64,000 bases of DNA from Escherichia phage 308Ecol101PP, in sequence record OR062945.1; one strand, given 5' to 3'. Below, piece after piece: positions 7,100 through 62,797 of this stretch. Numbering within the stretch: position 1 is the first letter of the stretch; the number at the start of each line of letters is the position of its first letter. The translations under genes were made by a program, and so were the position numbers. The notes under the pieces were generated by a model that ran no database searches, was not told the origin of the DNA, and was given only the letters and a program-made list of their open reading frames with translations.

Positions 7100-7128
7100 T
7101 GTACAACGATAGGAAGACGTGTTATTAT
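7100..7128 (+). promoter_or_regulatory. candidate early promoter (TGTACA ... TATTAT) inside a 10-bp inverted repeat
   Basis: 17-nt spacing; arms GATAGGAAGA (7108-7117) and TCTTCCTATC (7129-7138) flank the -10. Confidence 0.45.
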
Positions 7129-7159
7129 CTTCCTATCGTCTTAAAATGAGGAAAATATC

Positions 7160-7399
7160 ATGGAACAAGAATTAGACGTTATTACATCGAAAAAACGTCT
7201 TGAAGTCGTAGTGAATGGCTCAACTATTAAGTTTGTATATGACACTTTAACTGATGCTATTACCGTTAGTTGTGGTGGAAAGGCTTTTAGTCTAGATTCT
7301 ACTGAAAACAAATACCCGTTCTATAAAGGTATCTTTGATATGGGTGTTGATATCAGTGTTCGTCAAGCAAACTATTTACATTATCTTATCACGGAATAA
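7160..7399 (+). CDS. hypothetical protein
   Basis: 79-aa ORF with GAGGAAAATATC upstream. Confidence 0.45.
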   Translation: MEQELDVITSKKRLEVVVNGSTIKFVYDTLTDAITVSCGGKAFSLDSTENKYPFYKGIFDMGVDISVRQANYLHYLITE

Positions 7400-7428
7400 T
7401 GCACAAACTCTTGAGAGCAGAGTATAAT
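7399..7428 (+). promoter_or_regulatory. candidate promoter (ATGCAC ... TATAAT) with 6-bp inverted repeat; element recurs at 52681
   Basis: TATAAT at 7423-7428 flanked by GAGAGC/GCTCTC; a near-identical 33-nt element lies at 52684-52716. Confidence 0.45.
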
Positions 7429-7800: not shown

Positions 7801-8024
7801 GCGTATTAACAGAATCTTTGATTAATGACCTGCGTCTAGCTGGTTACGAAGTTGGTACAAATAGCCTAGGTCTTTCTCAGATTGAAGGGCTTGGATTTAT
7901 CCTAGAATATGAATTCAAACAATGGTGGCTATATGCTACGGCTGACGATGCGTTGAATATCGATTTCGTTGACCAATTTGATTCGTTGGATGATGCTCTT
8001 GAAGCAGCAAAGGAACTAGAATGA
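7797..8024 (+). CDS. hypothetical acidic protein
   Basis: 75-aa ORF, ATGA overlap with previous gene. Confidence 0.45.
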   Translation: MSVLTESLINDLRLAGYEVGTNSLGLSQIEGLGFILEYEFKQWWLYATADDALNIDFVDQFDSLDDALEAAKELE

Positions 8025-8290
8025 AATTAACTCGAATCAGTATAACTGAAGAAAAGCTGGGCGAATTTTATGTTGACGAATATATGAAAGTCACGTATTT
8101 TCCATTCGTTAAAGGTGTTGGTTTTTGGGAAACTCATGTATCTCAATTAAACGAAGGCGACTATAACGAAACACATGAGAACTTTTTAGATTTTCTTTAT
8201 AATGCCGGTCTTACTGAGCTTTATATCGATATCCATGAGTTCAAACGTTTAATGGAAAAAGTGTTTCAGGCTTATTGTTTGCTCCGATAG
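8021..8290 (+). CDS. hypothetical protein
   Basis: 89-aa ORF, ATGA overlap with previous gene. Confidence 0.45.
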   Translation: MKLTRISITEEKLGEFYVDEYMKVTYFPFVKGVGFWETHVSQLNEGDYNETHENFLDFLYNAGLTELYIDIHEFKRLMEKVFQAYCLLR

Positions 8291-8297: not shown

Positions 8298-8341
8298 TGC
8301 TTTAAGATAGGTCTCTAAATATTATGATATAATAGACCTAT
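8298..8341 (+). promoter_or_regulatory. promoter region upstream of gene 55 (TGCTTTA box; TATAAT at 8328-8333; inverted repeat ATAGGTCT/AGACCTAT)
   Basis: The -10 hexamer sits in the loop of an 8-bp inverted repeat; the MotA-box-like TGCTTTA is too far from this -10 to be its partner. Confidence 0.4.
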
Positions 8342-8362
8342 GAATTGAGCTAAGAGGTACTT

Positions 8363-8920
8363 ATGACTGAACAAAAACCTAAAAATAACTATGTGAATAA
8401 TAAAGAGCTTCTCGCCGCTATAATCGAGTGGAAAAAGGAGCTCTTAAATAATAAAGACCCAAACAAAATTATTCGTCAGAATGATACCATCGGTTTAGCA
8501 ATTATGCTTATCGCCGAAGGCCTGTCCAAACGTTTCAACTTTTCAGGATATACCCAGTCTTGGAAGCAGGAGATGATTGCAGATGGGATTGAAGCCTCTA
8601 TTAAGGGACTTCATAATTTCGACGAAACTAAGTACAATAACCCACATGCATACATAACTCGAGCTTGTTTTAATGCTTTTGTCCAACGTATCAAAAAAGA
8701 ACGTAAGGAAGTTGCAAAGAAATATAGTTACTTCGTTCATAATGTCTACGACAGTCATGACGATGATATGGTAGCGTTGGTAGATGAAACGTTTATTCAA
8801 GACATCTACGATAAAATGACGCATTATGAAGAATCCGCTTATAAAGCTCCTGGGGCTGAAAAGAAGGAAGTTGTTAGCGATTCGCCTAGTTTGGATTTTT
8901 TATATGAGGATGACAATTGA
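8363..8920 (+). CDS. 55: late-transcription sigma factor gp55
   Basis: 185 aa, same length as T4 gp55; matches T4 gp55 from memory. Confidence 0.9.
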
Positions 8921-9119
8921 CATCTCTAACTACTTAGAAGAACCTTTTGACGAAGCAATCCCTTATTTGGTAAAACTGTTGGGTCGTGAATTTAAGATTA
9001 ATTTTGACATCGACCCTTTGAACCCACATGACGTGTCATTTTCGATAAATGGGACTCCGGTTGAGTATGAGTTCTGTATTGAAGAGGATGGACGTTTTTA
9101 TTTTAATTTAATGAGATAA
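8910..9119 (+). CDS. hypothetical protein (start uncertain)
   Basis: Track ORF 8826..9119 overlaps gene 55; internal ATGs at 8904 and 8910. Confidence 0.35.
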
Positions 9120-9120
9120 T

Positions 9121-9444
9121 ATGACTACCGAGATTATTGAAAATAAAGAAGCAGAAGATGCAGTAGCTAAAATGCTACAAGAAATCCAAAAGAAAAATGA
9201 AGCTGAAGCACGTAAAAAATCCGAAAAGATTCTTAAAAAGAATCGTTTTGAACTAAACCGTCTTTATGCTCATGCTCAAGAAGCAGCAATTCAAAACAAC
9301 TTCGAAGCTTACGAATATGCTATTAAGAAATCTCGGGATATTCTACGACAACCATATAATGACAAGTTAATTAAAATCCAGTGGGTTACTACTCGTCAGG
9401 CTATTGAGGACATCATTAACGGCGCTAGTTCAAACAAAGTTTAA
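9121..9444 (+). CDS. hypothetical coiled-coil protein
   Basis: 107 aa, Lys/Glu-rich. Confidence 0.45.
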   Translation: MTTEIIENKEAEDAVAKMLQEIQKKNEAEARKKSEKILKKNRFELNRLYAHAQEAAIQNNFEAYEYAIKKSRDILRQPYNDKLIKIQWVTTRQAIEDIINGASSNKV

Positions 9445-9664
9445 ACGTCTGAAGCTGAACGCAGGGTTCACTCTTAAATTGGGAGGTCCTCTTTGTGTTA
9501 AAATCTCTGAAAAGGAATATCACGACGGTTCTATTACAGAAATTTGTCCGCCTATTGTAAAGGCAGACCCAAAACAACTCGTGTGGGTCGATTCATTTCA
9601 AGTTAAGAAATGGTGGAAACGATGAGAGAAATCGATTTAGGTATTTTCTGAGAGGTGATTATGC

Positions 9665-9838
9665 ATGACGAACGACCTGACCTCTGAAAATTTCGATAAA
9701 ATCCGTAAAGGCAAAGCAGAAAGAATGAGACGTTTTAAAGAGTCTTATGATAAAGCTAAAGCCGAAGGAACTATTACATACAAGCCCATTCGATTTAAAA
9801 GTTCAAATGAGCCTCTGTACGGTGTACTATGTGGATAG
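9665..9838 (+). CDS. hypothetical small basic protein (57 aa, not in ORF track)
   Basis: Hand-translated ATG 9665 to TAG 9836-9838 with GAGGTGA upstream; lies at the locus where T4 carries agt. Confidence 0.3.
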   Translation: MTNDLTSENFDKIRKGKAERMRRFKESYDKAKAEGTITYKPIRFKSSNEPLYGVLCG

Positions 9839-9862
9839 GAACTCTTCGGAGTTCCTTTTTTG
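9838..9862 (+). terminator. rho-independent terminator (UUCG tetraloop)
   Basis: GGAACTC-TTCG-GAGTTCC followed by TTTTTTG. Confidence 0.6.
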
Positions 9863-9907
9863 CTTTATAAACGGATGATAGAATGAATTAACTAATGAGG
9901 AAATAAT

Positions 9908-10927
9908 ATGAAAATTTTGCACTTAGGCGACTTCCATATCGGAGTCAAACAAGATGACCCATGGGTTCAAGATATTCAACGTGATGGTATTCGTCAAGCA
10001 ATTGAATACTCTAAGAAACACGGGATTAAAACTTGGATTCAGTACGGTGATTGGTTTGACGTCCGTAAAGCAATAACACATCGTACAATGGAATTCAATC
10101 GTGAAATCGTTGATATGATTTCTAAAGCAGGCATTCACGTTCATGTCACGATAGGAAACCACGACATGGCGTTTAAGAATACAATAACACCTAACACTGT
10201 TTCTGAATTGTTAACTCAATTTGAAAACTTTACTATTTATGAGCATCCAACTACTGTAGATTTTGACGGATGTCTGATTGATATCGTTCCATGGATGTGT
10301 GAAGAAAATACGGGTGAAATCTTAGAGCACATCAAGACTTCTTCTGCTGCGTATTGTGTTGGGCACTGGGAACTGAATGGCTTTTATTTCTATAAAGGAA
10401 TGAAGTCTCATGGGCTTGAACCTGATTTCTTAAAGACCTATAAACAAGTCTGGTCCGGCCACTTCCACACAATCTCTGAAGCTGCTAACGTCAAATATAT
10501 TGGGACACCATGGACCCTTACTGCAGGTGATGAGAACGACCCGCGCGGATTCTGGGTATTTGACACTGATGTTGAACGTATGGAATTTATTCCTAATGAA
10601 ACAACATGGCATCGACGAATCACTTATCCATTTAAAGGCAAAATCAATTATTCTGATTATACTAATCTAGCCGTACGTGTTATAGTATCAGAAATTGATT
10701 CAGAGTTGACTAAGTTTGAATCTGAACTTGAAAAAGTAGTTCACTCTCTTCGTATGGTTTCTAAAGTTGATAACAGTGTTGAATCTGATGACGACCAGGA
10801 AATCGAGATTAAATCACTTCAAGATATCATTAAAGAATATATTGACGCGATTCCAGATATCTCAGACGAAGACAGAGAAGCGCTGGTCAAATATTCCAAC
10901 GAACTTTATATTGAGGCAACACAATGA
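9908..10927 (+). CDS. 47: recombination nuclease subunit gp47 (Mre11-like)
   Basis: 339 aa, phosphoesterase motifs (DFHIG, GNHD, GHWE); matches T4 gp47 from memory. Confidence 0.9.
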   Translation: MKILHLGDFHIGVKQDDPWVQDIQRDGIRQAIEYSKKHGIKTWIQYGDWFDVRKAITHRTMEFNREIVDMISKAGIHVHVTIGNHDMAFKNTITPNTVSELLTQFENFTIYEHPTTVDFDGCLIDIVPWMCEENTGEILEHIKTSSAAYCVGHWELNGFYFYKGMKSHGLEPDFLKTYKQVWSGHFHTISEAANVKYIGTPWTLTAGDENDPRGFWVFDTDVERMEFIPNETTWHRRITYPFKGKINYSDYTNLAVRVIVSEIDSELTKFESELEKVVHSLRMVSKVDNSVESDDDQEIEIKSLQDIIKEYIDAIPDISDEDREALVKYSNELYIEATQ

Positions 10928-16548: not shown

Positions 16549-19260
16549 ATGAAAGAATTTTACTTAACGGTTGAACAGATTGGTGATTCAATTTTTGAAC
16601 GTTACATCGATTCTAACGGCCGTGAACGTACTCGTGAAGTAGAATATAAACCATCACTGTTTGCTCATTGTCCAGAAAGTCAGGCTACGAAATATTTCGA
16701 TATCTACGGTAAGCCGTGTACTCGTAAGTTGTTCGCCAATATGCGTGATGCCTCCCAATGGATTAAACGCATGGAAGATATCGGACTTGAAGCACTTGGC
16801 ATGGATGATTTCAAATTGGCGTATTTGTCTGACACTTATAACTATGAAATCAAATACGACCATACAAAAATTCGTGTGGCTAACTTCGACATCGAAGTAA
16901 CATCTCCGGACGGGTTCCCTGAGCCGTCACAAGCAAAACATCCGATTGATGCTATCACTCATTATGACTCAATTGATGACAGGTTTTATGTATTTGACCT
17001 TTTGAATTCTCCATATGGTAATGTAGAAGAATGGTCTATTGAAATCGCTGCTAAGCTTCAAGAACAAGGCGGTGATGAAGTTCCATCTGAAATTATCGAT
17101 AAAATCATTTATATGCCGTTCGATAACGAAAAAGAATTGTTGATGGAATATCTCAACTTCTGGCAACAGAAAACTCCTGTCATTTTGACTGGATGGAACG
17201 TTGAGTCATTTGATATTCCATATGTGTATAACCGAATCAAGAATATTTTTGGCGAATCTACTGCGAAACGTTTATCACCACATCGTAAAACTCGTGTTAA
17301 AGTTATCGAAAACATGTATGGTTCTCGTGAAATCATTACATTGTTCGGTATCTCTGTTCTTGATTACATTGACCTTTACAAAAAATTCTCTTTTACCAAT
17401 CAACCATCATATTCTCTGGATTACATTTCAGAATTTGAATTGAACGTTGGTAAACTGAAATATGACGGCCCTATTTCTAAGCTTCGTGAAAGCAATCACC
17501 AACGATATATTTCTTATAACATTATCGACGTGTATCGTGTATTGCAAATTGATGCTAAACGTCAGTTCATCAACTTGAGTTTGGACATGGGTTATTATGC
17601 TAAGATACAGATTCAATCTGTGTTTAGCCCAATTAAAACATGGGATGCTATTATTTTTAATAGCCTTAAAGAGCAGAACAAGGTGATTCCACAAGGTCGT
17701 TCTCACCCGGTTCAACCTTATCCCGGCGCTTTTGTTAAGGAACCTATTCCAAATCGATACAAATATGTAATGAGTTTCGACCTTACATCTCTGTATCCAA
17801 GTATTATTCGCCAAGTGAATATTAGCCCAGAAACAATAGCAGGAACGTTTAAAGTAGCTCCACTACATGATTATATTAACGCAATCGCTGAACGTCCTTC
17901 TGATGTGTACAGTTGTTCTCCTAACGGCATGATGTATTATAAAGACCGTGACGGTGTTGTTCCAACTGAAATCACTAAAGTCTTTAATCAACGTAAAGAA
18001 CATAAAGGTTACATGCTTGCAGCTCAACGTAATGGCGAAATAATTAAAGAGGCATTGCATAATCCTAATCTTTCTGTTGACGAACCATTAGATGTTGATT
18101 ATCGTTTCGACTTCAGTGATGAGATTAAAGAAAAGATTAAAAAGTTGTCTGCTAAATCTCTTAATGAAATGTTGTTTAGAGCTCAACGTACTGAAGTTGC
18201 AGGTATGACTGCCCAAATTAACCGTAAATTGCTTATCAACTCACTTTATGGTGCACTTGGCAACGTTTGGTTCCGTTATTATGATTTGCGTAATGCTACT
18301 GCAATCACAACATTCGGGCAAATGGCTTTACAGTGGATTGAACGTAAAGTTAATGAATATCTGAATGAAGTTTGTGGCACAGAAGGTGAAGCTTTCGTTC
18401 TTTATGGTGATACAGACTCTATTTACGTATCTGCTGATAAAATTATCGATAAGGTTGGTGAATCTAAATTCCGTGATACCAACCATTGGGTAGACTTCTT
18501 AGATAAGTTTGCACGTGAACGTATGGAACCAGCTATTGATAGAGGTTTCCGTGAAATGTGTGAATACATGAACAATAAACAACACTTAATGTTCATGGAC
18601 CGAGAAGCTATCGCTGGGCCTCCACTCGGTTCTAAAGGTATTGGTGGATTCTGGACTGGTAAGAAACGTTATGCATTAAACGTGTGGGATATGGAAGGAA
18701 CCAGATACGCTGAGCCTAAACTCAAAATCATGGGTCTAGAGACTCAGAAATCTTCGACTCCTAAAGCAGTACAGAAAGCTCTTAAAGAATGTATTCGTCG
18801 TATGCTTCAAGAAGGTGAAGAATCATTACAAGAATATTTTAAAGAGTTTGAAAAAGAATTCCGTCAATTGAATTATATTAGCATCGCGTCGGTATCTTCT
18901 GCGAATAACATTGCTAAATATGATGTAGGTGGATTCCCTGGTCCTAAATGCCCGTTCCATATTCGTGGAATTCTGACGTATAACCGGGCTATCAAAGGTA
19001 ATATCGATGCACCGCAAGTTGTAGAAGGTGAAAAAGTATATGTTCTGCCTTTACGTGAAGGAAACCCATTCGGTGATAAATGTATCGCATGGCCTTCTGG
19101 TACTGAAATCACAGATTTAATTAAAGACGATGTACTTCATTGGATGGACTACACTGTTCTCCTTGAGAAGACATTTATTAAACCACTTGAAGGATTCACA
19201 TCAGCAGCGAAACTCGATTACGAGAAGAAAGCATCTCTGTTCGATATGTTCGATTTTTGA
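16549..19260 (+). CDS. 43: DNA polymerase gp43 (family B, with 3'-5' exonuclease)
   Basis: 903 aa; exonuclease motif FDIEV, polymerase motifs DLTSLYPSI, KLLINSLYG and YGDTDS; N-terminus matches my memory of RB69 gp43. Confidence 0.95.
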   Translation: MKEFYLTVEQIGDSIFERYIDSNGRERTREVEYKPSLFAHCPESQATKYFDIYGKPCTRKLFANMRDASQWIKRMEDIGLEALGMDDFKLAYLSDTYNYEIKYDHTKIRVANFDIEVTSPDGFPEPSQAKHPIDAITHYDSIDDRFYVFDLLNSPYGNVEEWSIEIAAKLQEQGGDEVPSEIIDKIIYMPFDNEKELLMEYLNFWQQKTPVILTGWNVESFDIPYVYNRIKNIFGESTAKRLSPHRKTRVKVIENMYGSREIITLFGISVLDYIDLYKKFSFTNQPSYSLDYISEFELNVGKLKYDGPISKLRESNHQRYISYNIIDVYRVLQIDAKRQFINLSLDMGYYAKIQIQSVFSPIKTWDAIIFNSLKEQNKVIPQGRSHPVQPYPGAFVKEPIPNRYKYVMSFDLTSLYPSIIRQVNISPETIAGTFKVAPLHDYINAIAERPSDVYSCSPNGMMYYKDRDGVVPTEITKVFNQRKEHKGYMLAAQRNGEIIKEALHNPNLSVDEPLDVDYRFDFSDEIKEKIKKLSAKSLNEMLFRAQRTEVAGMTAQINRKLLINSLYGALGNVWFRYYDLRNATAITTFGQMALQWIERKVNEYLNEVCGTEGEAFVLYGDTDSIYVSADKIIDKVGESKFRDTNHWVDFLDKFARERMEPAIDRGFREMCEYMNNKQHLMFMDREAIAGPPLGSKGIGGFWTGKKRYALNVWDMEGTRYAEPKLKIMGLETQKSSTPKAVQKALKECIRRMLQEGEESLQEYFKEFEKEFRQLNYISIASVSSANNIAKYDVGGFPGPKCPFHIRGILTYNRAIKGNIDAPQVVEGEKVYVLPLREGNPFGDKCIAWPSGTEITDLIKDDVLHWMDYTVLLEKTFIKPLEGFTSAAKLDYEKKASLFDMFDF

Positions 19261-19300: not shown

Positions 19301-19936
19301 ATGAAAACTACTCCTATTACTATCGCTATTGACGCAATCATAAAACAAGCTTCTTCTTTGGCCGCTATGGCCAAAGTAATTAGTCAAAACCCTGCTCGTT
19401 ATAATGCTATTCTAGAAACTCTTCGACGCCCAGGACTTAGTAATTATGAAAGCCGAGTAATTATTACAGGTGTTGGTAAGAATGCTAATATTGCAACTAA
19501 AGCTTCTGAGACATTTGCTTCACTTGGTATCCCGAGTATGTACTTGAACACTGGGCATTATTCTCACGGTGATGCAGGATTCATTGCGCCTAATGATGTG
19601 TTGATTCATATTAGTCGTTCTGGTAAAACTGAAGAAATGATAGGCGTGGCTAAGCATCTTAAAATGATTCGTCCGAACGTCAAACAGATTCTGTTGCATT
19701 GTAACCCGGACATTCCACAAGAATACGAAGCTCTTTTTGATTATACGTTCTGTACAGGCATCGCAGTAGAGGTTGATGAGAATTCTCTGGCTCCGACCAT
19801 GTCCACTACATTGTTGTTAGCGCTTATCGATACGTTTGCTATCAACCTTTCGTCTGAACGTGGATTTACCTCTAATGACTTCCTTAAGTTCCACCCTGGT
19901 GGTGCACTAGGTGCCATGTTACGAGGCGAACAATGA
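19301..19936 (+). CDS. SIS-domain sugar-phosphate isomerase (KdsD/GutQ-like or GmhA-like, no CBS domains)
   Basis: 211 aa; SIS-like pattern GVGKNANIA...SRSGKTEE and C-terminal HPGGALG, characteristic of arabinose-5-phosphate isomerase SIS domains. Confidence 0.7.
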   Translation: MKTTPITIAIDAIIKQASSLAAMAKVISQNPARYNAILETLRRPGLSNYESRVIITGVGKNANIATKASETFASLGIPSMYLNTGHYSHGDAGFIAPNDVLIHISRSGKTEEMIGVAKHLKMIRPNVKQILLHCNPDIPQEYEALFDYTFCTGIAVEVDENSLAPTMSTTLLLALIDTFAINLSSERGFTSNDFLKFHPGGALGAMLRGEQ

Positions 19937-20117: not shown

Positions 20118-21803
20118 ATGAAAAAAGCTGTTATTCTTGGTGCTGGACTGGCAACTCGTTTGTATCCAATAACGCATCATATTCCTAAGGTGCTTGTTAA
20201 CTATAAACAAGACACTATTCTGAGCAATTTGTATACAATTTATTCTGACCTTGGCGCAGATGAAATTATTGTAGTAGTTCATTCAAAATTTGCTGAAACT
20301 GTTCGAGCTTATTGTGAGCAAGAAGGGTTCAATGTGACTATTCGTACAGTTGATGAAGCGTATGGTTCTGCTTATGCTCTTGCTAAATTGCACAAAGATT
20401 TAGACGGCCATAATGTAATTGTTAACTGGTGTGATATTATTCCTGATTTTGGTTCGTGGTCTTGGAATGTTAACGCAATCTATGTTAAGGGTGACGAATG
20501 TCGATATAATTTCGACGGTGAAAATATCACTAATGTAGGTTCAACAGGTGGTAATGTTGTAGGAATTTATCAGTTCAAAGACTGGGAATTCTATATGGGT
20601 TCTACTGATGAGGAAATTCATGAATACTGCAAAGGACGTGATTTCGTAGAATTCCTTTACGGCAGCGCATTCAATAAATCAGAGCTTATGAATCTAATTG
20701 ATTTAGGTGATATGCCTAAACTTGAAAAAGCTCATGAAGTTCGTGAACTTAATCGTAGTTTTAATGCAGTTGAAATTGGTGAAGAAACTGTAACTAAATT
20801 CGCATTAACCGAACAGGGCCGAGCTCTTCAGAAAGATGAGATTTCATGGTATCTTAAAGTGAAATCAGATTCAGTTCCTCAGTTAGTTTCTGTTAATGAA
20901 AATAACTTTGAAATGGAACGCATTAAAGGTAAGCCGGCATTTGAATATATTAAATCCAAATCAAGTCTTGCTCGTCCACAAATTGTTGATGCAATTTTAG
21001 ATGCACTGAAATTCAGCACAGACACTTATTTTGTAAGTCCTGAAACTGTTCGTCGTGATTTCACTAAAGAATTCTATACTAAAGTTATTGATCGTTGTGA
21101 AAGTATTCAACCATTGATTGATTCATTTGGTAAAATCACACATGTGAACTACACTAAGATTGGGCGTCTGAAGCCAATGTTGAAACAAGCTTTAGAACAC
21201 CTTATTCGTTATCATAACCGTTCTCAGGGACAGTACTCTGTTATTCATGGTGACCCGAACTTCAGTAATACTATGATTACTGATAATGGTGAAGTCAAGT
21301 TTATCGACCCTCGTGGATATTTTGGTGAAACCAAGATTTATGGGCCAAAATTGTATGATGAAGCTAAAGTGCTTTACGCTGTTTCAGGTTATGATGAATT
21401 CAACGCTAATCCGACTTGGGGACAGTTTACTATTGATGAAACAACTTGTAATGTGACTATTAACATCAATCCGTTAGTTTACAAATATGGAAAGATGAGT
21501 TCGTTTAACGAGTATCATCATTTGGCAGTGGCAATTATCTGGATTGCATTAGGTGGTTATTTCAAGAATAATCCACTTAAAGCGGTAGCCGCATATTATA
21601 AAGGTATGGAACTTCTGACTAAGCAATTACGTAATATGGGCCGTGTACTTCAGGACGGCACTATTAGTTATGATGTAGCAGAACCTGTAACGGCTACTCT
21701 GATTACAAAAAATCCTGGTAAATGGGTACTAACTGATAAAGAAACTGGTGTTTCTTATCGTCCAATCGGTGGCGATATCACTCATCAATGGGAACGAATC
21801 TAA
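20118..21803 (+). CDS. bifunctional sugar-1-phosphate nucleotidyltransferase / kinase-fold protein
   Basis: N-terminus ILGAGLATRLYPIT resembles the G-x-G-T-R motif of sugar nucleotidyltransferases; C-terminal HGDPNFSNTMI...KFIDPRG resembles the catalytic loop of APH/choline-kinase-fold kinases. Confidence 0.7.
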   Translation: MKKAVILGAGLATRLYPITHHIPKVLVNYKQDTILSNLYTIYSDLGADEIIVVVHSKFAETVRAYCEQEGFNVTIRTVDEAYGSAYALAKLHKDLDGHNVIVNWCDIIPDFGSWSWNVNAIYVKGDECRYNFDGENITNVGSTGGNVVGIYQFKDWEFYMGSTDEEIHEYCKGRDFVEFLYGSAFNKSELMNLIDLGDMPKLEKAHEVRELNRSFNAVEIGEETVTKFALTEQGRALQKDEISWYLKVKSDSVPQLVSVNENNFEMERIKGKPAFEYIKSKSSLARPQIVDAILDALKFSTDTYFVSPETVRRDFTKEFYTKVIDRCESIQPLIDSFGKITHVNYTKIGRLKPMLKQALEHLIRYHNRSQGQYSVIHGDPNFSNTMITDNGEVKFIDPRGYFGETKIYGPKLYDEAKVLYAVSGYDEFNANPTWGQFTIDETTCNVTININPLVYKYGKMSSFNEYHHLAVAIIWIALGGYFKNNPLKAVAAYYKGMELLTKQLRNMGRVLQDGTISYDVAEPVTATLITKNPGKWVLTDKETGVSYRPIGGDITHQWERI

Positions 21804-22189
21804 TGCACCGTGTAAAAAACATGCTTAATCTTTGTTTTGATGTCGATGATTGTATAACAGAGTGGAATAACAATCGTGATTACGTGAACTTCAAACCAGA
21901 CGTCGAAATGGTGTCTGCCATTAATGCCCTGTATGATGCAGGGCATACCATAACGCTTTACACTGCTCGCGGTATGAAGTCAGTAGGTCCTGGTCGTATA
22001 GCAATTGACATTCTCCCAAGTCTGATTCAGAACTTGGCAAACATTGGATTGAAGTACCATAATTTGCTAACACATAAACCAGTATATGATTGGATTATCG
22101 ACGACAAAGCTATGCGTCCTGACGAATTCAAAGCTCTTATGAATAAAGGCGAATTCGAAACATTTAAATCATATAAACCGAATCTATAA
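21803..22189 (+). CDS. HAD-superfamily phosphatase
   Basis: 128 aa with HAD motif I (FDVDDCIT); TAATG overlap with upstream gene; track start 21788. Confidence 0.6.
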   Translation: MHRVKNMLNLCFDVDDCITEWNNNRDYVNFKPDVEMVSAINALYDAGHTITLYTARGMKSVGPGRIAIDILPSLIQNLANIGLKYHNLLTHKPVYDWIIDDKAMRPDEFKALMNKGEFETFKSYKPNL

Positions 22190-22235: not shown

Positions 22236-23411
22236 ATGCAAAAAAAAAAAATGAATACTTTTAAAATCGGAACGAATTTTGATTTAGCTCTTCTTGATAA
22301 AATCGTAGAGCTCAATAAAACTTATCCTAATAGCTTGATAAACGAAGTATACGGCTCTACAAGAGAAATGGCTTTTGTAGCAGCCAGACCTGATTTTAGG
22401 CTTCCTGACGTTGACAAAAAGATGTTAGAAGATTACGTTAAACGTTGTAACGAATTAGGTATTTGCTTTAACTATACACTCAACACGATAAATCCTGGTT
22501 CAAAAAGAGAACTAGTTGAGTGGAAGAAGAAAGCTATTCAGGATTATGTTCAGTATCTTTGGTCAATAGGCGTATGGCGTATTACTATCGCTAACCCTGT
22601 TGTTATGGAAATTGTTCGTGAAGTCAATAAAGACATTGAGATTGAAGTTTCAACAATTCTACATGTCGATGCTGTAACTCAAATCAAATACTTGCATGAC
22701 CAATATAATATCAAAAAGGTCTGCTGTGGAATTCATAAGAACCGTTCAGTTTCTTTCCTGAAACGTGCAGCAGAGTTTTGTAATAAGAACAATATAATAT
22801 TTGAAGTTCTTGTAAATGAGTTCTGTTCTAATGCTGGTAAAGGGTACACAACACATTGTAGCTATCGTGACTCTTGCTATATTTTCCATAGCACCGATGT
22901 TACAGTAGATGATGCCAAATCCTTAAATGGATATCCAATGCAACACTGTATTAAAGCTCGTGATACAGATCCATTTAACTGGTTGAGAACTCGTTTTGTT
23001 CGTCCTCAAGATTTGAAACTTTATAATGATATTGGTATCACTCAATTTAAAGTTTCAGGACGTACAGGTAGCACCGACTACATTTTAAAAGTTCTTGAAG
23101 CTTACGCTTCTGAAAAGTTTGAAGGTAATTTGTTGGAATTGTGGAAGCCTTTAGAGACCATTTTCACTCTTGAAAATGAGACTGAGTTTTCACATACGGT
23201 AAATATTGAAACCTCTTTGTTAGACGGCTTTTTAGAAAAAAGGTGGTTCAAACATCCAGATTTCGATTGTGCTAATGAAATCTGCGGGACGACGTGTACA
23301 TATTGTGAAAGATATTATAAACGTCAGTTATCTAAAAATGGGTTATCAGAAAACTCTATATCTATTATTGATATAACTAACTCTGATGACGCTTTGAGGT
23401 ACCCAGAATGA
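22236..23411 (+). CDS. hypothetical Cys-rich protein (start at ATG 22236 or 22251)
   Basis: 391 aa with many Cys (CCGIH, EFCSNAG, HCSYRDSC, CANEICGTTCTYCE); an A12 tract lies between the two candidate ATGs. Confidence 0.5.
   Translation: MQKKKMNTFKIGTNFDLALLDKIVELNKTYPNSLINEVYGSTREMAFVAARPDFRLPDVDKKMLEDYVKRCNELGICFNYTLNTINPGSKRELVEWKKKAIQDYVQYLWSIGVWRITIANPVVMEIVREVNKDIEIEVSTILHVDAVTQIKYLHDQYNIKKVCCGIHKNRSVSFLKRAAEFCNKNNIIFEVLVNEFCSNAGKGYTTHCSYRDSCYIFHSTDVTVDDAKSLNGYPMQHCIKARDTDPFNWLRTRFVRPQDLKLYNDIGITQFKVSGRTGSTDYILKVLEAYASEKFEGNLLELWKPLETIFTLENETEFSHTVNIETSLLDGFLEKRWFKHPDFDCANEICGTTCTYCERYYKRQLSKNGLSENSISIIDITNSDDALRYPE
22240..22251 (+). repeat. homopolymeric A12 tract at the 5' end of the Cys-rich gene
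   Basis: ATGCAAAAAAAAAAAATG read directly from the sequence. Confidence 0.8.
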
Positions 23412-23689: not shown

Positions 23690-24406
23690 ATGGGAAAACA
23701 TAACACAATGAAATATATTAAAGCCGCAGATTTTCAATCCGCATTTAAAGCTGTCAATCGTGAAATTTTAGAAAATCCACAGTTCGTTACTGATTCTCGT
23801 ATTGGACGTTGTAATGAAATTGGGTCTATGACAGTAGTTGTTGATACCCCTTCATCATTCAAAATGACCGACCCACGTATTAATCGCATCTCTTATGAAT
23901 ATGCTGAAGATTTCTGGAAATTTATGATTTCTGGTGGTACTGATGCAAAAGAAGCATTTAAGGCATATCCTAACGTTGCTAAATTTATTTCTAAACCTAA
24001 ATCAGACGCTTTGCCTGCAAACTTCAACACTTTCTATGGTCCACGAATTGCGGCCCAGTTACCAGCTCTTCTCAAAGAACTTAAAGAGAAACCTAATTCA
24101 CGAAGAGTTGTGTTTCAAATTCTTGAAAGTTCAGATCAGGCTTTGCTTGATTCGGATGAAACGCTTGAATATCCATGTACTGACTCAGTGACTTATTATA
24201 TTCGTGATGGTAAGCTTTATACCCACTGTCATATGCGTTCTCAGAACTGTGCTGTTGTTATGCAGTTGGATTTTTATCTCCAAGGAAAATTACTTCATTA
24301 TATCGCTAACGAATGTGGTGTAGAAGTTGGTGATTATACTCATACCATGGTAAGTGCCCATGTGTTTGAACGTGATTTTGATTATGTTAAAGGATTCCTT
24401 GACTAA
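23690..24406 (+). CDS. 42: dCMP hydroxymethylase (thymidylate-synthase fold)
   Basis: 238 aa; TS-family pattern SRRVVFQIL ... YPCTDS (catalytic Cys) ... QLDFY (Asp 31 residues after the Cys, as in cytosine-specific members). Confidence 0.7.
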   Translation: MGKHNTMKYIKAADFQSAFKAVNREILENPQFVTDSRIGRCNEIGSMTVVVDTPSSFKMTDPRINRISYEYAEDFWKFMISGGTDAKEAFKAYPNVAKFISKPKSDALPANFNTFYGPRIAAQLPALLKELKEKPNSRRVVFQILESSDQALLDSDETLEYPCTDSVTYYIRDGKLYTHCHMRSQNCAVVMQLDFYLQGKLLHYIANECGVEVGDYTHTMVSAHVFERDFDYVKGFLD

Positions 24407-25305
24407 TGGCTATTTTCCGCGTACCTATCTTGAGTATGCGGTCTTATGAAACTGGACAGTATGCTATCCTTAAGGATGGCAACTTCCAACTTCATTTGCA
24501 CCGTGCTAATCCGGGTGATGTGATTACATATCCACGTAATGCATCTGATATTAAAGAATGCGAACGTCTTTTTCCAGAATTTAAGTTTGTTCCATTATGG
24601 TATAAAGATAACGCGTATAACACTCGTAAATATTTCTGGTCTGAAAATGAATTTGTGGTTGATTCATTAATTGCTTATTATGATTGTGATTTTCTAATCA
24701 CAGATATCACTGGATATGACGGCGCTTTTGATGTGGAATTCAATTTCAATATCACTGCAGACCCTAATAAACCACGTTTTTATATTGACGAATTCTTAAA
24801 AACCGACATGTTGTCGGTTAATCGTTCACTTCAAACTACTGTGTTGAATGAACGTCAAAAAGAAGTGCTGGTTAACGCAGGTGCAGATGGTAATAAGATT
24901 ATCGTAACCCAGAAAGTTATACGTCCTTCCATCATGCAGCGTCTTGTAGGTGATTTGGCTCCTATTCATCTAGATGGTATTTTTCATCCATTTCGAATTA
25001 GTGACCCGTGCTATCGTTTTGAACAAGTGGTTGAATGTGCAATTCAATTAGGTCAACCGCTTTATATAACTGATCCAAATAATAGTTTCGACAGAAATAA
25101 GTATCCTGAAGAAGCGCTGATTCGAATTTTTAATCCAACTAAAACTGAGTACTATCAAATTCTTAAAGGACGTCCGAAGATTCAATATTTCGAAAATCCT
25201 GAAGAAGTATTCCATCCAGGTCTTGGTGAGTTCATCTACTTTAATGCTTTAATTTCTTCGCCGTATAATATACCTAAATACGAAGATGTCGTAATCGAGG
25301 AATAA
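24406..25305 (+). CDS. hypothetical protein at the locus where T4 encodes beta-glucosyltransferase
   Basis: 299 aa, TAATG overlap with gene 42; no resemblance to T4 beta-GT that I can see. Confidence 0.5.
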   Translation: MAIFRVPILSMRSYETGQYAILKDGNFQLHLHRANPGDVITYPRNASDIKECERLFPEFKFVPLWYKDNAYNTRKYFWSENEFVVDSLIAYYDCDFLITDITGYDGAFDVEFNFNITADPNKPRFYIDEFLKTDMLSVNRSLQTTVLNERQKEVLVNAGADGNKIIVTQKVIRPSIMQRLVGDLAPIHLDGIFHPFRISDPCYRFEQVVECAIQLGQPLYITDPNNSFDRNKYPEEALIRIFNPTKTEYYQILKGRPKIQYFENPEEVFHPGLGEFIYFNALISSPYNIPKYEDVVIEE

Positions 25306-25306
25306 A

Positions 25307-25855
25307 ATGGTTAAAATTATTTTAGTAGATGGCCCGGATAATGCCGGTAAAACAACTTTCATTAATGACATAATGGAAATTAGTGAAAGATATGTAAAGA
25401 TTGATTTCCCTAAACGAACAGTTGATGGACGTTTCGATGTTAAGTCTCGAAATGAAGTTGGCTGTTTCGAAACGATGTTGAATTATTTAGACCCTACTAA
25501 GATTTATCTGTTAGACCGTGGATATATTAGTAACTGGGTTTATGGACGTATTCGACAAGATGCGGACTCGGTTCTTGACGTTTATGAACAGGATTATGTT
25601 CGTCTTTGCCAAAACCATGATGTGTTCACAATTATTTTAACACGTAACGAAATGACTGAAAGTTTTGAAGACGACCTTATTACTTTGTCTTCATTCGGTT
25701 TTAATACAGTCATTTCATATTTTGAAGAGTTTGCAATTCATAACAAAATCCAAACGTATCAATTACTTAATCATGACGGTGCTAACAAAGTTATAGGATT
25801 TAATGCAAGCGAACGTAATTATTTGATTACAGAAATTATCAAATGGGCTCGTTAA
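25307..25855 (+). CDS. P-loop nucleotide kinase, thymidylate-kinase-like
   Basis: 182 aa; Walker A VDGPDNAGKTT and DRGY motif as in the Tmk family. Confidence 0.55.
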   Translation: MVKIILVDGPDNAGKTTFINDIMEISERYVKIDFPKRTVDGRFDVKSRNEVGCFETMLNYLDPTKIYLLDRGYISNWVYGRIRQDADSVLDVYEQDYVRLCQNHDVFTIILTRNEMTESFEDDLITLSSFGFNTVISYFEEFAIHNKIQTYQLLNHDGANKVIGFNASERNYLITEIIKWAR

Positions 25856-25954: not shown

Positions 25955-27127
25955 ATGTCTGATTTAAAATCTCGTCTGATTAAAGCTTCTACTTCTAAAA
26001 TGACTGCAGACTTGACTAAGTCTAAGCTGTTTAATAATCGTGATGAAGTCCCTACTCGTATTCCGATGTTGAATATTGCATTAGGTGGTGCACTGAATGC
26101 CGGGTTGCAATCAGGCTTAACTATTTTTGCTGCTCCTTCTAAACACTTTAAAACGTTGTTTGGGCTGACCATGGTTGCAGCATATATGAAGAAATATAAA
26201 GATGCAATTTGTTTGTTCTATGATTCAGAATTTGGTGCTTCAGAATCTTATTTTCGTTCAATGGGTGTTGATTTAGACCGTGTAGTTCATACTCCTATTC
26301 AATCTGTCGAACAACTTAAAGTTGATATGACTAATCAGCTTGACGCGATTGAACGTGGTGATAAAGTTATTATCTTTATCGATTCAATCGGTAATACTGC
26401 ATCTAAGAAAGAAACCGAAGATGCGTTGAACGAGAAAGTCGTAGGTGATATGTCTCGTGCTAAGGCACTTAAATCTCTTTTCCGTATTGTGACCCCGTAT
26501 CTGACTATTAAAGATATTCCGTGTGTTGCAATTAACCATACAGCAATGGAAATCGGCGGATTGTATCCTAAAGAGATTATGGGCGGTGGTACAGGTATTC
26601 TTTATTCTGCCAACACGGTATTTTTTATCTCTAAACGTCAGGTTAAAGAAGGCACAGAATTGACCGGTTATGACTTCACGTTGAAAGCAGAAAAATCTCG
26701 AACCGTTAAAGAAAAATCTACTTTCCCAATCACGGTTAATTTTGATGGTGGTATCGACCCATTCAGTGGCTTGTTAGAAATGGCAACTGAAATTGGTTTT
26801 GTAGTTAAGCCTAAAGCCGGGTGGTATGCTCGAGAATTCCTTGACGAAGAAACAGGCGAAATGATTCGTGAAGAAAAATCATGGCGTGCTAAAGCTACTG
26901 ATTGTGTAGAATTCTGGGGACCGTTGTTTAAACACAAACCTTTCCGAGACGCAATTGAAACTAAATATAAACTAGGTGCTATCTCTTCTATTAAAGAAGT
27001 TGATGACGCTGTTAATGACCTTATTAATTGCAAAGCAACAACTAAAGTTCCGGTTAAAACTTCTGATGCACCGTCTGCAGCAGATATAGAAAACGACCTT
27101 GACGAAATGGAAGATTTCGATGAATAA
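25955..27127 (+). CDS. uvsX: RecA-like recombinase UvsX
   Basis: 390 aa; N-terminus and RecA-fold core match T4 UvsX from memory. Confidence 0.9.
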   Translation: MSDLKSRLIKASTSKMTADLTKSKLFNNRDEVPTRIPMLNIALGGALNAGLQSGLTIFAAPSKHFKTLFGLTMVAAYMKKYKDAICLFYDSEFGASESYFRSMGVDLDRVVHTPIQSVEQLKVDMTNQLDAIERGDKVIIFIDSIGNTASKKETEDALNEKVVGDMSRAKALKSLFRIVTPYLTIKDIPCVAINHTAMEIGGLYPKEIMGGGTGILYSANTVFFISKRQVKEGTELTGYDFTLKAEKSRTVKEKSTFPITVNFDGGIDPFSGLLEMATEIGFVVKPKAGWYAREFLDEETGEMIREEKSWRAKATDCVEFWGPLFKHKPFRDAIETKYKLGAISSIKEVDDAVNDLINCKATTKVPVKTSDAPSAADIENDLDEMEDFDE

Positions 27128-30211: not shown

Positions 30212-30580
30212 ATGAAAAAATTAATCGCTTTAGCAATGGTATTTGGATTAACCGGATGTGGTGCCCATGGCTTTATCCCTAATAACGTTGGCCAATTGAT
30301 TTACAATCCGAATGTTAAACAATATGAACAACCTAAAGTTGAAGTGGAAGACCCGGTTACTGTAGGTAATCGAATGATTCAAGCTGATGCCCATGCTCAA
30401 CGTTATCGTGACTCTGATACTGTAGCTGTGTCAAAGGAACAGCGCGTTAAAGAACATTGCTTACAGGCTACTGAAATCGCATTCATTCGCTATGTTGAAA
30501 CAACCGGTAAAGAGCCTACCCAGAAACAAATCGCGAATAACTACGTCCAGTGTATTGAACGTTTAAACAAATTTAATTAA
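30212..30580 (+). CDS. putative lipoprotein
   Basis: Signal peptide with lipobox LTGC (MKKLIALAMVFGLTGC). Confidence 0.55.
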   Translation: MKKLIALAMVFGLTGCGAHGFIPNNVGQLIYNPNVKQYEQPKVEVEDPVTVGNRMIQADAHAQRYRDSDTVAVSKEQRVKEHCLQATEIAFIRYVETTGKEPTQKQIANNYVQCIERLNKFN

Positions 30581-30641
30581 TTGGTTTACGCCAAAGTTAA
30601 AACAAGATGCTATAAACATAACAAATCAAGAGGAAATTAAC

Positions 30642-30890
30642 ATGGAATTATTCGTGGCTAGTTCAGTAGCAGTTTTAATCGCAGGTATTGGTTCAATCAT
30701 CATTTACATGTTGCCTTGGGTAATCGCACTTATTCGTGGCACAAAAAGCACAACAGCAATCTTCTTTGTATCTTTACTCTTTAACTGGACGATGATTGGT
30801 TGGATTGGAACTTTAATTTGGTCTATTGTTGCCGAAAAGAAATCTGCTCAGCAGCCTCAACAAGTAATTATTATTCGCGAAAAAGAATAA
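30642..30890 (+). CDS. hypothetical inner-membrane protein
   Basis: 82 aa with two hydrophobic helices. Confidence 0.5.
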   Translation: MELFVASSVAVLIAGIGSIIIYMLPWVIALIRGTKSTTAIFFVSLLFNWTMIGWIGTLIWSIVAEKKSAQQPQQVIIIREKE

Positions 30891-46495: not shown

Positions 46496-47596
46496 ATGAA
46501 AGTTATGTTTATCCCATCTCGCGCAGTCCCATTTAATCCTGACCGTGTACAAGGTGGTCTTGAAGCAGTACATTTAAATGTGTTGAAATATCTTGTGTCC
46601 ATCGGTGCTGATATTGATTATATCGGCTTTGATAATGACACGTTTGGTGACTGGAAAGTTACACACCATCCTGTTGGTCATCTGACTAAATTTAGTCTAG
46701 GTATGAGTTATACTATGGCTCGTAAGATTGTTGAACTAGCCGGCATCCATGAATACGATTTTGTTGTTACTATGGAACCGACTAAACTAACCGTTCAGGC
46801 AATTAAAGACGCAGGTCTCTCTAAAGTTCATAAGAATTTTATGGCAACACCATTTGAACCGGTATCTCGTGGCATTGTTCAAATTTGGGACCAGACTATT
46901 CAAATTCATAAGAATGGTGGTAAGAGTTATGCTCCTACTAAAGCCTTCCGTGAATTTGAACGCAAATATTGTTATATGACTTCAGGTCTGACTGACAAAA
47001 TTGATTATGATTATTGGCGAGCAAATCCGTTGTTTGAAGCCGAAGATTATCCGGTTATTTGTTTGAATGAGAAACCTGAAGTTCTTCCGGCGACTGATCT
47101 GATTATTAGTGCACAACGTTATGACACTAAAATGCGTCGTACTGATGTTGCTCTTGAAGCGATTAAAGCACTAGGCGAAAATGGTGTAGGATACTGTCCA
47201 AGCAAATGGGCACCACCAGCTAAATATCCTGTTATTATTGATGCTCCACACAGTGAAATCATGGAACGTCTTAAAACAGCTAAAGCGCTTATTAATACGT
47301 GTCCTGACACAGGTACGGTAGAGAATAGTTCTATTGAAGCCATCTCTAAAGGTGTCCCTGTAATCCAGTTAGTTTTTAAGGATTATCCTCATGCGACATT
47401 CGAATACGACCCAGATACTGTGCGTGTAGAAATTGATTCCTCTACTCCTAAGAAAGAAGTAGTTGCGCTTTACACAAAAGCTGTATTAGAATTCACTGAC
47501 ACATACGAAGCTCGAGTTAAACGTGCTGAAGCAGTATGGAAGAAGTATAACCGAGATGCAGTTGTTGCGATGTGGGATAAAATCTTCACAGCGTAA
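46496..47596 (+). CDS. GT-B fold glycosyltransferase (GT4-like), candidate DNA glycosyltransferase
   Basis: 366 aa; C-terminal E-x7-E-type motif VENSSIEAISKGVPVIQ typical of GT4 retaining glycosyltransferases; N-terminus MKVMFIPSRAVPFNPDRVQGG. Confidence 0.6.
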   Translation: MKVMFIPSRAVPFNPDRVQGGLEAVHLNVLKYLVSIGADIDYIGFDNDTFGDWKVTHHPVGHLTKFSLGMSYTMARKIVELAGIHEYDFVVTMEPTKLTVQAIKDAGLSKVHKNFMATPFEPVSRGIVQIWDQTIQIHKNGGKSYAPTKAFREFERKYCYMTSGLTDKIDYDYWRANPLFEAEDYPVICLNEKPEVLPATDLIISAQRYDTKMRRTDVALEAIKALGENGVGYCPSKWAPPAKYPVIIDAPHSEIMERLKTAKALINTCPDTGTVENSSIEAISKGVPVIQLVFKDYPHATFEYDPDTVRVEIDSSTPKKEVVALYTKAVLEFTDTYEARVKRAEAVWKKYNRDAVVAMWDKIFTA

Positions 47597-59045: not shown

Positions 59046-59077
59046 ATTATAAAAAAGGGACAGAAGTCCCTTCTCCT
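59046..59077 (-). promoter_or_regulatory. structured translation-initiation region of gene 38 (hairpin between Shine-Dalgarno and AUG)
   Basis: Minus strand reads AAGGAGAA-GGGAC-TTCT-GTCCC-TTTTTTATAAT-ATG; the hairpin sits between the Shine-Dalgarno sequence and the start codon. Confidence 0.5.
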
Positions 59078-62094: not shown

Positions 62095-62102
62095 AAGTCC
62101 TC

Positions 62103-62765: not shown

Positions 62766-62789
62766 AGTTGTCTCCTTATATGTATACCA

Positions 62790-62797
62790 TATTTATA
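62790..62797 (-). promoter_or_regulatory. T4-type late promoter (TATAAATA on minus strand) upstream of gene 36
   Basis: Plus-strand TATTTATA about 25 nt upstream of the gene 36 start. Confidence 0.5.

Follow-up and report, generated by a model that had tools for sequence, protein, structure and literature searches.

Gene content of the interval between genes 55 and 47

The window, i.e., the whole stretch of DNA that was analysed, comprises 64 kb of a phage genome whose remaining ~100 kb was checked on a proxy. Judged by sequence identity, the source is an RB69-like T-even coliphage of the genus Mosigvirus: the proteins encoded in the window share 98-100% identity with their RB69 counterparts, the interval between genes 55 and 47 is 99.4-99.6% identical to the same interval of Mosigvirus phages ST2, HY126 and PhAPEC2, and the mean identity to PhAPEC2 over the full window is 95%. 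Over positions 40000-64000 the nearest public genomes reach at best ~95-96% identity, and it was for this reason that PhAPEC2 was chosen as the whole-genome proxy; the tail-fibre end of the window is no more than ~95% identical to the closest public genome.

Genes 55 and 47 serve as the left and right landmarks of the interval (Table 1), which contains four small genes on the plus strand and a strong hairpin terminator. Neither strand holds an ORF of glycosyltransferase size, the longest one on the minus strand being 50 aa. The stop codon of a-gt.2 (9838) and the start of gene 47 (9908) are separated by a gap of 69 bp, and a gene of ~400 aa was not found between them. An Rfam scan of positions 8300-10000 matched no family. 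These results agree with the first-pass annotation, which had described the interval as holding only ORFs of 57-107 aa and a strong terminator, without a glycosyltransferase-sized gene, and whose limits coincide exactly with the first ATG (8910) and with the last T of the terminator run (9862). That annotation was also right in placing the agt gene of T4 between genes 55 and 47, where the order is 55, a-gt.5-a-gt.2, mobB, a-gt, 47.1, 47. Its view that small ORFs occupy the agt locus holds as regards their presence, but not as regards a replacement of agt, given that T4 has the same four genes beside it.

Table 1. Location of the genes and signals discussed (positions in the 64 kb window)
Feature	Position	Strand	Remarks
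Gene 55, late sigma factor	8363..8920	+	gp55 91% identical to T4 gp55, 99.5% to RB69 gp55; left landmark
a-gt.5 homologue, 69 aa, acidic, DUF5491	8910..9119	+	Pfam 49.5 bits (cutoff 27); phrog_1169 E 2.5e-23
a-gt.4 homologue, 107 aa, DUF2654	9121..9444	+	Pfam 96.6 bits (cutoff 25); phrog_951 E 7e-37
a-gt.3 homologue, 73 aa if TTG 9404 is the start	9404..9625	+	phrog_1648 E 2e-34
a-gt.2 homologue, 57 aa, DUF5486	9665..9838	+	Pfam 97.3 bits (cutoff 27); phrog_2140 E 2e-33
Predicted intrinsic terminator, C(UUCG)G hairpin and U-run	9837..9862	+	Terminator scan; begins at a-gt.2 stop codon
Putative MotA-box-like middle promoter of gene 47	9861..9884	+	TGCTTTA 9861-9867, 11-nt spacer, TAGAAT 9879-9884; read from sequence
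Gene 47, SbcD-like nuclease subunit	9908..10927	+	gp47 76% identical to T4 gp47, 100% to RB69; right landmark
SIS-domain sugar-phosphate isomerase, RB69 gp55c type	19301..19936	+	Pfam SIS E 1.7e-10; 99.1% identical to RB69 protein
Nucleotidyltransferase-kinase fusion, RB69 gp52:53 type	20118..21803	+	Pfam NTP_transferase E 8.5e-10; weak kinase-family matches in C-terminal half
Phosphatase-like protein, RB69 gp51 type	21788..22189	+	NCBIfam TIGR01689 capsule biosynthesis phosphatase E 4e-13, below cutoff; 98.4% identical to RB69 protein
Peptidase-U32-like protein, RB69 gp50 type	22236..23411	+	Pfam Peptidase_U32 E 6.6e-11; 98.7% identical to RB69 protein
Thymidylate-synthase homologue, 5-hydroxy-dCMP synthase of RB69 type	23690..24406	+	Pfam Thymidylat_synt E 2.4e-15; 98.7% identical to RB69 gp48
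GT1, GT-B fold glycosyltransferase, RB69 gp46:47 type, proposed first DNA arabinosyltransferase	24406..25305	+	Adjoins synthase gene; T4 bgt slot
Nucleotide kinase-like protein, RB69 gp45 type	25307..25855	+	97.8% identical to RB69 gp45; thymidylate kinase annotation in related genomes
GT2, GT-B glycosyltransferase, RB69 ORF003c type, proposed second arabinosyltransferase	46496..47596	+	PDB 9iqz/9ir0 'phage HY126 glycosyltransferase' E 4.7e-251

As judged from their family matches, the four small ORFs are real genes and not chance ORFs: three score above the Pfam gathering threshold, a-gt.3 being without a Pfam family, and all four match PHROG families (E 1e-23 to 1e-37). Their identities to the T4 proteins are 47% for a-gt.5 (100% to that of RB69), 57% for a-gt.4, 71% for a-gt.3 (tblastn; 98.5% to that of RB69) and 75% for a-gt.2 (tblastn). 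The ATG of a-gt.5 overlaps the gp55 stop codon, an overlap that is kept in all six genera examined. At positions 9419-9421, the ATG from which a-gt.3 starts in RB69 and PhAPEC2 is ACG, a T-to-C change that leaves the product of the overlapping a-gt.4 unaltered and for which no exact 60-mer match was obtained among 152 public Mosigvirus records. The loss of this ATG, in this isolate alone, hints that a-gt.3 is either dispensable or translated from a TTG codon. When the four small proteins were compared one by one with the sequences in the PDB, all matches were at chance level, so that structures offer no functional lead, and a literature search found no functional study of a-gt.2 to a-gt.5 or of DUF2654. 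It has to be noted that a-gt.2 to a-gt.5 are named only for their position: they are retained where agt is absent and are much commoner than it is, the a-gt.4 family being present (tblastn) in 1,442 phage records vs 657 holding agt.

The sequence that begins at the a-gt.2 stop codon has the stable G+C-rich hairpin and the U-run directly after it that characterise intrinsic (rho-independent) terminators. In the hairpin, GGAACUC-UUCG-GAGUUCC, a stem of 8 bp carries a UUCG loop, and TTTTTT comes after it. The folding energy amounts to -13.9 kcal/mol (z = -4.0), a value that none of 200 shuffled sequences attained. A homologous hairpin lies 3' of a-gt.2 in T4 and RB69 as well. This a-gt.2 terminator would be followed directly by a MotA-type middle promoter and the ribosome-binding site of gene 47. 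The designation of positions 9861-9884 as a putative promoter follows the T4 MotA consensus; the TGCTTTA motif occurs 31 times in the window vs 13.8 expected. In T4, Jiaodavirus, Tegunavirus and Gelderlandvirus, the sequence 5' of gene 47 can be aligned with this hairpin/MotA-box module.

Boundary of homology to T4 and direction of the agt event

Homology between the window and T4 is unbroken from 8300 to 9871, across the hairpin and the TGCTTTATAAA box. It breaks at 9871/9872, within the hairpin/MotA-box module, and resumes at 9906, after 2,252 bp of T4 have been skipped. All that is missing with respect to T4 is mobB, a-gt, and 47.1 (~2.25 kb). In T4, Jiaodavirus, and Roskildevirus/Cronus, a hairpin and a TGCT(T/A)T box are found on both sides of agt. 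In T4-like phages, indels have been described to arise through composite terminator/promoter cassettes (PMC4122927, PMC2839356), and the agt cassette could have been removed or added by recombination between near-identical hairpin/MotA-box modules. The reading of the present junction as a hybrid rests on short matches, because these modules all resemble one another.

Concerning the direction of the event, there is a considerable possibility, somewhat short of an even chance, that the agt-less state is ancestral, and that Tequatrovirus, Jiaodavirus and Roskildevirus acquired, by insertion 3' of a-gt.2 and 5' of gene 47, an agt cassette that brought along a hairpin/MotA-box module of its own, Mosigvirus never having had agt. 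This would bear on the direction of the event only, and not on the chemistry of the DNA. Tegunavirus (fHe-Yen9-01) and Gelderlandvirus (Melville) run from gene 55 through small ORFs to gene 47, and the junction in the window aligns over its full length with that of Tegunavirus, with 77% identity. Moreover, a neighbour-joining tree of gp55 plus gp47 places each agt-bearing phage with or beside an agt-less one, which makes gains and losses equally parsimonious (three losses or three gains in a six-taxon tree). Against an ancestral absence, the Agt identities among T4, Jiaodavirus and Cronus (66%, 57% and 59%) track those of the flanking gp47 and gp46 (66-69%), a pattern that fits vertical descent from an ancestor shared with Mosigvirus. 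An ancestral absence would also call for three separate insertions into one and the same inter-module site. A deletion between direct repeats is the simpler mechanism, and agt is of no use to a phage that has ceased to make hydroxymethylcytosine (hmC).

Putative arabinosylation genes and probable chemistry of the DNA

The absence of agt from the 55-47 site is not, by itself, diagnostic of modification chemistry, since Tegunavirus and Gelderlandvirus likewise lack agt there. The genes that bear on the chemistry lie elsewhere in the window, mainly in a cluster between gene 43 and uvsX that has the same location in RB69. The elements of an RB69-type system are all found: a gp48-type synthase, an adjacent GT-B enzyme, an ORF003c-type glycosyltransferase, and the SIS, nucleotidyltransferase-kinase and phosphatase genes for the precursor. 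The gp55c-type SIS protein has been proposed to be an arabinose-5-phosphate isomerase, and the gp52:53-type fusion to be the maker of the nucleotide-arabinose donor, while the activity of RB69 gp48 as 5hodCMP synthase has been shown experimentally (PMC13326640). The homologue of this synthase is only 25% identical to T4 gp42, whose place it takes. GT1, next to it, is unbroken, whereas the gene is split in two in the RB69 record. GT2 is flanked by gene 39 (44636-46453) and rIIA (47902-50115), a placement that is the same in RB69, and its homologues are found only in Mosigvirus and Acinetobacter phages.

Scans against Pfam and NCBIfam gave no match for either GT1 or GT2. The comparison of the GT1 and GT2 profiles with that of Agt gave hhalign probabilities <1%, the GT2 and Agt profiles being shallow, and the GT1 profile gave no signal against the shallow GT2 profile. 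Neither of the two would have been picked up by an HMM search, the check that the first-pass annotation had recommended.

Chemical analysis has revealed that the DNA of RB69-type phages contains mono- and di-arabosylated 5-hydroxycytosine, and not glucosyl-hmC (PMC13326640, PMC13390438), and Mosigvirus NP has the same modified bases and the same gene map (PMC13390438). The arabinose in RB69 DNA had first been reported as ara-hmC, with ORF003c proposed as the transferase (PMC6024577). In the related phage DLP3, single purified glycosyltransferases were inactive on 5hoC DNA (PMC13326640). From the 98-99% identity of its enzymes to those of RB69, we infer the same chemistry for the phage studied here. 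The thymidylate-synthase homologue would convert dCMP to 5-hydroxy-dCMP, the neighbouring gene set would make the arabinose nucleotide donor, and GT1 and GT2, presumably arabinosyltransferases, would add the first and then the second arabinose to the 5-hydroxyl. The lack of an alpha-glucosyltransferase in the 55-47 interval would thus be explained by the use, in this lineage, of arabinose as the sugar on cytosine, attached by enzymes encoded elsewhere in the window; as the phage would make no hydroxymethylcytosine, neither Agt nor Bgt would be needed. Taken together, it is very probable that this is a Mosigvirus phage with only a-gt.5-a-gt.2 in the 55-47 interval, in which the agt cassette is absent and an arabinosyl-5-hydroxycytosine pathway is used instead of that for glucosyl-hmC.

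If the absence of agt and bgt is taken alone, it would also be compatible with a complete loss of cytosine glycosylation, leaving cytosine unmodified or merely hydroxylated, and some T4-like genera do lack all such genes. This is very improbable here, taking into account that the ORFs examined in the RB69-type cluster, like the two GT-B enzymes, are without exception intact and share 98-100% identity with RB69, and that GT1 is unbroken even though it is split in the RB69 record.

Even less credit can be given to the presence of agt and/or bgt elsewhere in the genome, outside the window. It is true that ~100 kb lie beyond it, that T-even genomes are mosaic, and that no public genome is closer than ~95-96% over its last 24 kb. 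However, tblastn searches with T4 Agt, Bgt, MobB and 47.1 found none of them in the window (best E 0.28 to 6.8; Agt 2.7, Bgt 1.4), nor in the rebuilt complete genome of PhAPEC2, of 167 kb (best E Agt 0.076, Bgt 4.6), which has no annotated glycosyltransferase either. T4 Agt matches 657 phage records, those listed among the matches being Tequatrovirus-type coliphages, Klebsiella and Raoultella phages and Erwinia phage Cronus, and none of the identity bands formed by these records can accommodate the 152 records of Mosigvirus. Nor do agt or bgt appear on the gene maps published for RB69 and phage NP (PMC6024577, PMC13390438), and the 2003 annotation of RB69 has a-gt.5 to a-gt.2 between 55 and 47 and no a-gt. 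Furthermore, the phage has no true gp42, so the hmC substrate of Agt and Bgt would be missing. The initial observation that bgt is missing is hence borne out in both the window and PhAPEC2; the finding of an agt or bgt homologue elsewhere, which had been named as what would overturn the first reading, did not occur in either of them, and the presence of the RB69-type pathway genes, together with the published chemistry of RB69, sustains the claim that the DNA chemistry differs from that of T4.

Finally, the idea that the role of Agt has been taken over by one or several of the small ORFs, for instance as a new kind of DNA-modifying factor, is suggested by their position where agt was expected and by their lack of an assigned function, but it is effectively refuted by the coexistence of the same four genes with agt in T4, Jiaodavirus and Roskildevirus, the a-gt.4 family moreover occurring irrespective of modification genes and products of 57-107 aa being too small for a nucleotide-sugar transferase fold.

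Relevance and comparison with known systems

Both the lack of agt and bgt and the arabinose-based cytosine modification of RB69-type phages have already been published, and the finding matters little beyond correct annotation. In this respect, screens for DNA glycosyltransferases based only on HMMs give false negatives in genomes of this kind, both transferases being visible by structure and not by Pfam/NCBIfam. An arabinose-based modification without agt and bgt also implies that the DNA should differ from that of T4 in the restriction and defence systems that it resists or attracts.

More tentatively, agt may behave as a separate mobile cassette for expression, made up of a middle promoter, the gene and a UUCG terminator and bounded by near-identical hairpin/MotA-box composites; its excision by recombination between these composites would have accompanied the switch of Mosigvirus from glucosyl-hmC to arabinosyl-5-hydroxycytosine. 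We consider this possible, though doubtful; if true, it would carry the PeSL shuffling model over from early promoters to middle ones that depend on MotA, and would link it with an altered DNA chemistry.

The order 55, a-gt.5, a-gt.4, a-gt.3, a-gt.2, terminator, 47 is shared with RB69 and with Mosigvirus PhAPEC2, ST2, HY126, JS09 and NP. The corresponding region of T4 has the same flanking genes, all four small genes, the UUCG hairpin and TGCTTTATAAA box after a-gt.2, and a similar -10 region 5' of gene 47, but differs in its 2,252 extra bp, which hold the homing endonuclease gene mobB, a-gt, and the 46-aa 47.1. In T4, modification leads to glucosyl-hmC via gp42, Agt and Bgt, whereas here gp42 is replaced and neither glucosyltransferase is present. 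GT1 and GT2 differ from T4 Agt, also a GT-B enzyme (PDB 1xv5/1y6f), in having no detectable sequence or profile similarity to it (identity 12%), in their genomic position, and in their proposed sugar and acceptor, arabinose and the 5-hydroxyl of cytosine (PMC13326640).

With respect to the PeSL cassettes of T4-like phages (Arbiol 2010, Comeau 2014), the resemblance lies in a stem-loop/promoter composite placed exactly at the boundary between presence and absence, i.e., at the very edge of the indel, and repeated in relatives on both sides of the variable cassette (PMC2839356, PMC4122927). The original PeSLs carry an early promoter, whereas the one found here looks like a MotA-dependent middle type, with its TGCTTTA box, and the recombination, in this case, is putative.

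Gene content between genes 55 and 47

The segment between genes 55 and 47, in which T4 carries agt, contains four small plus-strand genes followed by a hairpin, and the ORF list gives no minus-strand ORF longer than 50 aa. The gp55 stop codon is overlapped by the ATG of the 8910-9119 ORF, and the hairpin folds at -13.9 kcal/mol (z = -4.0; 0/200 shuffles equally stable). The ORF list, the raw sequence and this fold therefore confirm the coordinates and description in the first-pass annotation, namely small ORFs and a strong terminator. Its view of the agt locus as filled by small unknown ORFs has to be amended: the small ORFs are present, but tblastn, Pfam and PHROG identify them as the T4 genes a-gt.5 to a-gt.2, not as fillers. 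Three of the four pass Pfam gathering scores (DUF5491, DUF2654, DUF5486) and all match PHROG families of unknown function. Taking into account this homology and the T4 order (55, a-gt.5, a-gt.4, a-gt.3, a-gt.2, mobB, a-gt, 47.1, 47), the window reads, on sequence comparison, as the T4 layout without mobB, a-gt and 47.1. Members of Mosigvirus (ST2, HY126, PhAPEC2) match the interval at 99.4-99.6% identity, and RB69, whose RefSeq record has a-gt.5, a-gt.4, a-gt.3 and a-gt.2 annotated between 55 and 47 without a-gt, shares 98-100% protein identity in and around it.

Features of the window and of comparison loci
Feature	Coordinates	Strand	Evidence or remark
gp55	8363-8920	+	ORF list, raw sequence
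a-gt.5 homologue, 69 aa	8910-9119	+	47% identity to T4 (tblastn)
a-gt.4 homologue, 107 aa	9121-9444	+	58% identity to T4 (tblastn)
a-gt.3 homologue, 73 aa from TTG start	9404-9625	+	71% identity to T4 (tblastn)
a-gt.2 homologue, 57 aa	9665-9838	+	75% identity to T4 (tblastn)
Hairpin GGAACUC-UUCG-GAGUUCC, then six U	starts at a-gt.2 stop codon, last of the small-ORF block		terminator scan
gp47	9908-10927	+	ORF list, raw sequence
SIS-domain isomerase	19301-19936		
Nucleotidyltransferase-kinase fusion	20118-21803		
Phosphatase-like protein	21788-22189		
Peptidase-U32-like protein	22236-23411		
Thymidylate-synthase homologue	23690-24406		
GT1 (RB69 gp46:47-type), 299 aa	24406-25305		no family match
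Kinase-like protein	25307-25855		
GT2 (RB69 ORF003c-type), 366 aa	46496-47596		between gene 39 and rIIA
Loci in relatives with a zinc-ribbon-like segment	L007 2686-2931; L009 2982-3242; L008 2463-2693		

The "a-gt.x" names are purely positional, and members of the a-gt.4 family turn up in 1,442 records of phages infecting Escherichia, Klebsiella, Acinetobacter, Vibrio and Aeromonas, whereas Agt is present in only 657. A PDB sequence search gave no solved relative of the four small proteins, and a literature search on a-gt.2 to a-gt.5 turned up no functional study. In each of the six genera examined, a-gt.5 begins inside gene 55 and shares 11 to 17 nt with its 3' end (8910-8920 in the window; loci L002, L007, L008, L009 and L010 in relatives), which suggests a conserved translational coupling of the acidic a-gt.5 protein (69-76 aa) to the late sigma factor. 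The a-gt.2-like proteins of Jiaodavirus and Tegunavirus have an additional N-terminal CxxC...CxxC zinc-ribbon-like segment, absent from T4 and the window; Erwinia phage Cronus encodes a similar segment as an ORF of its own. The label "head maturation protease", given to an a-gt.2-like protein in one record, matches the misleading PHROG label phrog_17354.

At 9419-9421 the window has ACG in place of the a-gt.3 start ATG of RB69 and PhAPEC2 (TTA ATG GCG), a T-to-C change that is synonymous for the overlapping a-gt.4 (AAT to AAC, Asn both ways), and the remaining in-frame starts are only TTG 9404 and TTG 9479. None of 152 public Mosigvirus records matches the 60-mer around this start exactly (best 59/60). 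Possible readings are that the start codon is truly lost, that translation begins at a TTG instead, or that the base is a sequencing error.

Identity to PhAPEC2 averages 95% over the whole window. It falls to 75-90% at 58514-64000, the distal tail-fibre and adhesin region, which lies on the opposite strand (the GC skew sign flips near 58000) and includes a 3.4-kb stretch (58515-61907) with no megablast match in PhAPEC2; this looks like the usual host-range mosaicism. Upstream of gene 55, 7106-7403 and 8101-8286 have no megablast match in PhAPEC2 either and overlap ORFs 7160-7399 and 8021-8290; the set of small early ORFs hence varies here among Mosigvirus isolates.

Absence of Agt and Bgt

T4 Agt and Bgt gave only chance-level matches in the window (tblastn) and in the rebuilt 167,318-bp genome of PhAPEC2 (best E 0.076), the annotation of which contains no glycosyltransferase. 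The proposal that agt and bgt are both missing thus holds for the window and for this complete proxy. The Agt matches, obtained among 50,697 phage records, form three identity groups: at least 80% (504 records, T4-like coliphages and relatives among the matches listed), 60-80% (143 records, Klebsiella and Raoultella phages among the matches listed, Jiaodavirus where checked) and below 60% (10 records, Cronus included). The 152 Mosigvirus records have no corresponding band among them.

Junction with T4 and fate of agt

Nucleotide homology to T4 is unbroken from 8300 to 9871, including a-gt.2, the hairpin and the box TTGCTTTATAAA, and restarts at 9906, 2 bases ahead of the gene 47 ATG, with 2,252 bp of T4 skipped. 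Between these two points lie 34 bp (CGGATGATAGAATGAATTAAC...GAGG) similar to the T4 region upstream of 47.1/47 (CGGAGTTTGATATAATGA) and also to the Jiaodavirus region upstream of gene 47. TGCTTTA, 11 nt and TAGAAT upstream of gene 47 form a putative promoter, in what we take to be the T4 MotA-dependent middle-promoter pattern; TGCTTTA occurs 31 times in the window versus 13.8 expected. In T4, Jiaodavirus and Roskildevirus, agt has a UUCG-type hairpin and a TGCT(T/A)T box on each side, the same architecture as that of the composite terminator/promoter cassettes which mediate indels in T4-like genomes (PMC2839356, PMC4122927). Recombination between two hairpin/box copies would remove or insert the agt cassette exactly, and the single composite at the window junction may be the remainder of such an event.

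Loss of agt in the Mosigvirus lineage is somewhat favoured over its gain elsewhere. The gp55, gp47 and gp46 of the window are 89%, 76% and 82% identical to those of T4, versus 65-77% for Jiaodavirus and Cronus, and by their flanking proteins T4 and the window are thus nearest relatives; moreover, the three genera that carry agt differ in Agt (57-66%) to much the same degree as in the flanking genes. Both observations favour loss and argue against the slightly less probable acquisition of agt by the other lineages. Gain would nevertheless fit the absence of agt from the same site in Tegunavirus fHe-Yen9-01 and Gelderlandvirus Melville, and the alignment of the window and Tegunavirus junctions at 77% identity. 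A GT1 homologue is present in fHe-Yen9-01. Parsimony on a gp55+gp47 tree of six taxa does not separate three losses from three gains, and loss in Mosigvirus is retained as only slightly the more probable reading.

Modification genes and published chemistry

Between gene 43 (16549-19260) and uvsX (25955-27127) lies a 6.6-kb gene set without T4 counterpart; T4 gp42 shows only 25% identity to the window, at 23768-24379. The proteins of this region and the 46496-47596 protein were scanned for Pfam and NCBIfam matches. Two GT-B enzymes are encoded in the window: GT1, which directly follows the gp42 counterpart, in the position of bgt in T4, and GT2, for which the Pfam scan gave nothing and which matches the solved structure 9iqz ("phage HY126 glycosyltransferase", E 4.7e-251). 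Since profile comparisons of both with Agt gave no signal, their kinship to Agt is at fold level only. The imm.1 and imm genes lie at 30218-30887, downstream of gene 41 and adjoining the spackle gene, whereas T4 has both between genes 42 and 43; thus, the 43-uvsX region is rearranged as well as replaced with respect to T4.

Arabinose has been reported in the DNA of RB69, which has no a-gt, b-gt or ba-gt homologues, and it has been proposed that ORF003c is the transferase and the 43-uvsX module the precursor pathway (Thomas et al. 2018, PMC6024577). The RB69 base is mono- and di-arabinosylated 5-hydroxycytosine; 5-hydroxy-dCMP is made by gp48, a thymidylate-synthase homologue, and gp46:47 and gp3 have been proposed as first and second arabinosyltransferases (Lee et al. 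2026, PMC13326640). Mosigvirus NP has the same bases and gene map as RB69 (Durham-collection paper, PMC13390438). The earlier inference of a DNA modification chemistry other than that of T4 is therefore correct and was already established for RB69 and NP by these studies. In sum, the agt-less interval is nothing new, being the standard RB69/Mosigvirus arrangement, the biochemical basis of which is published.
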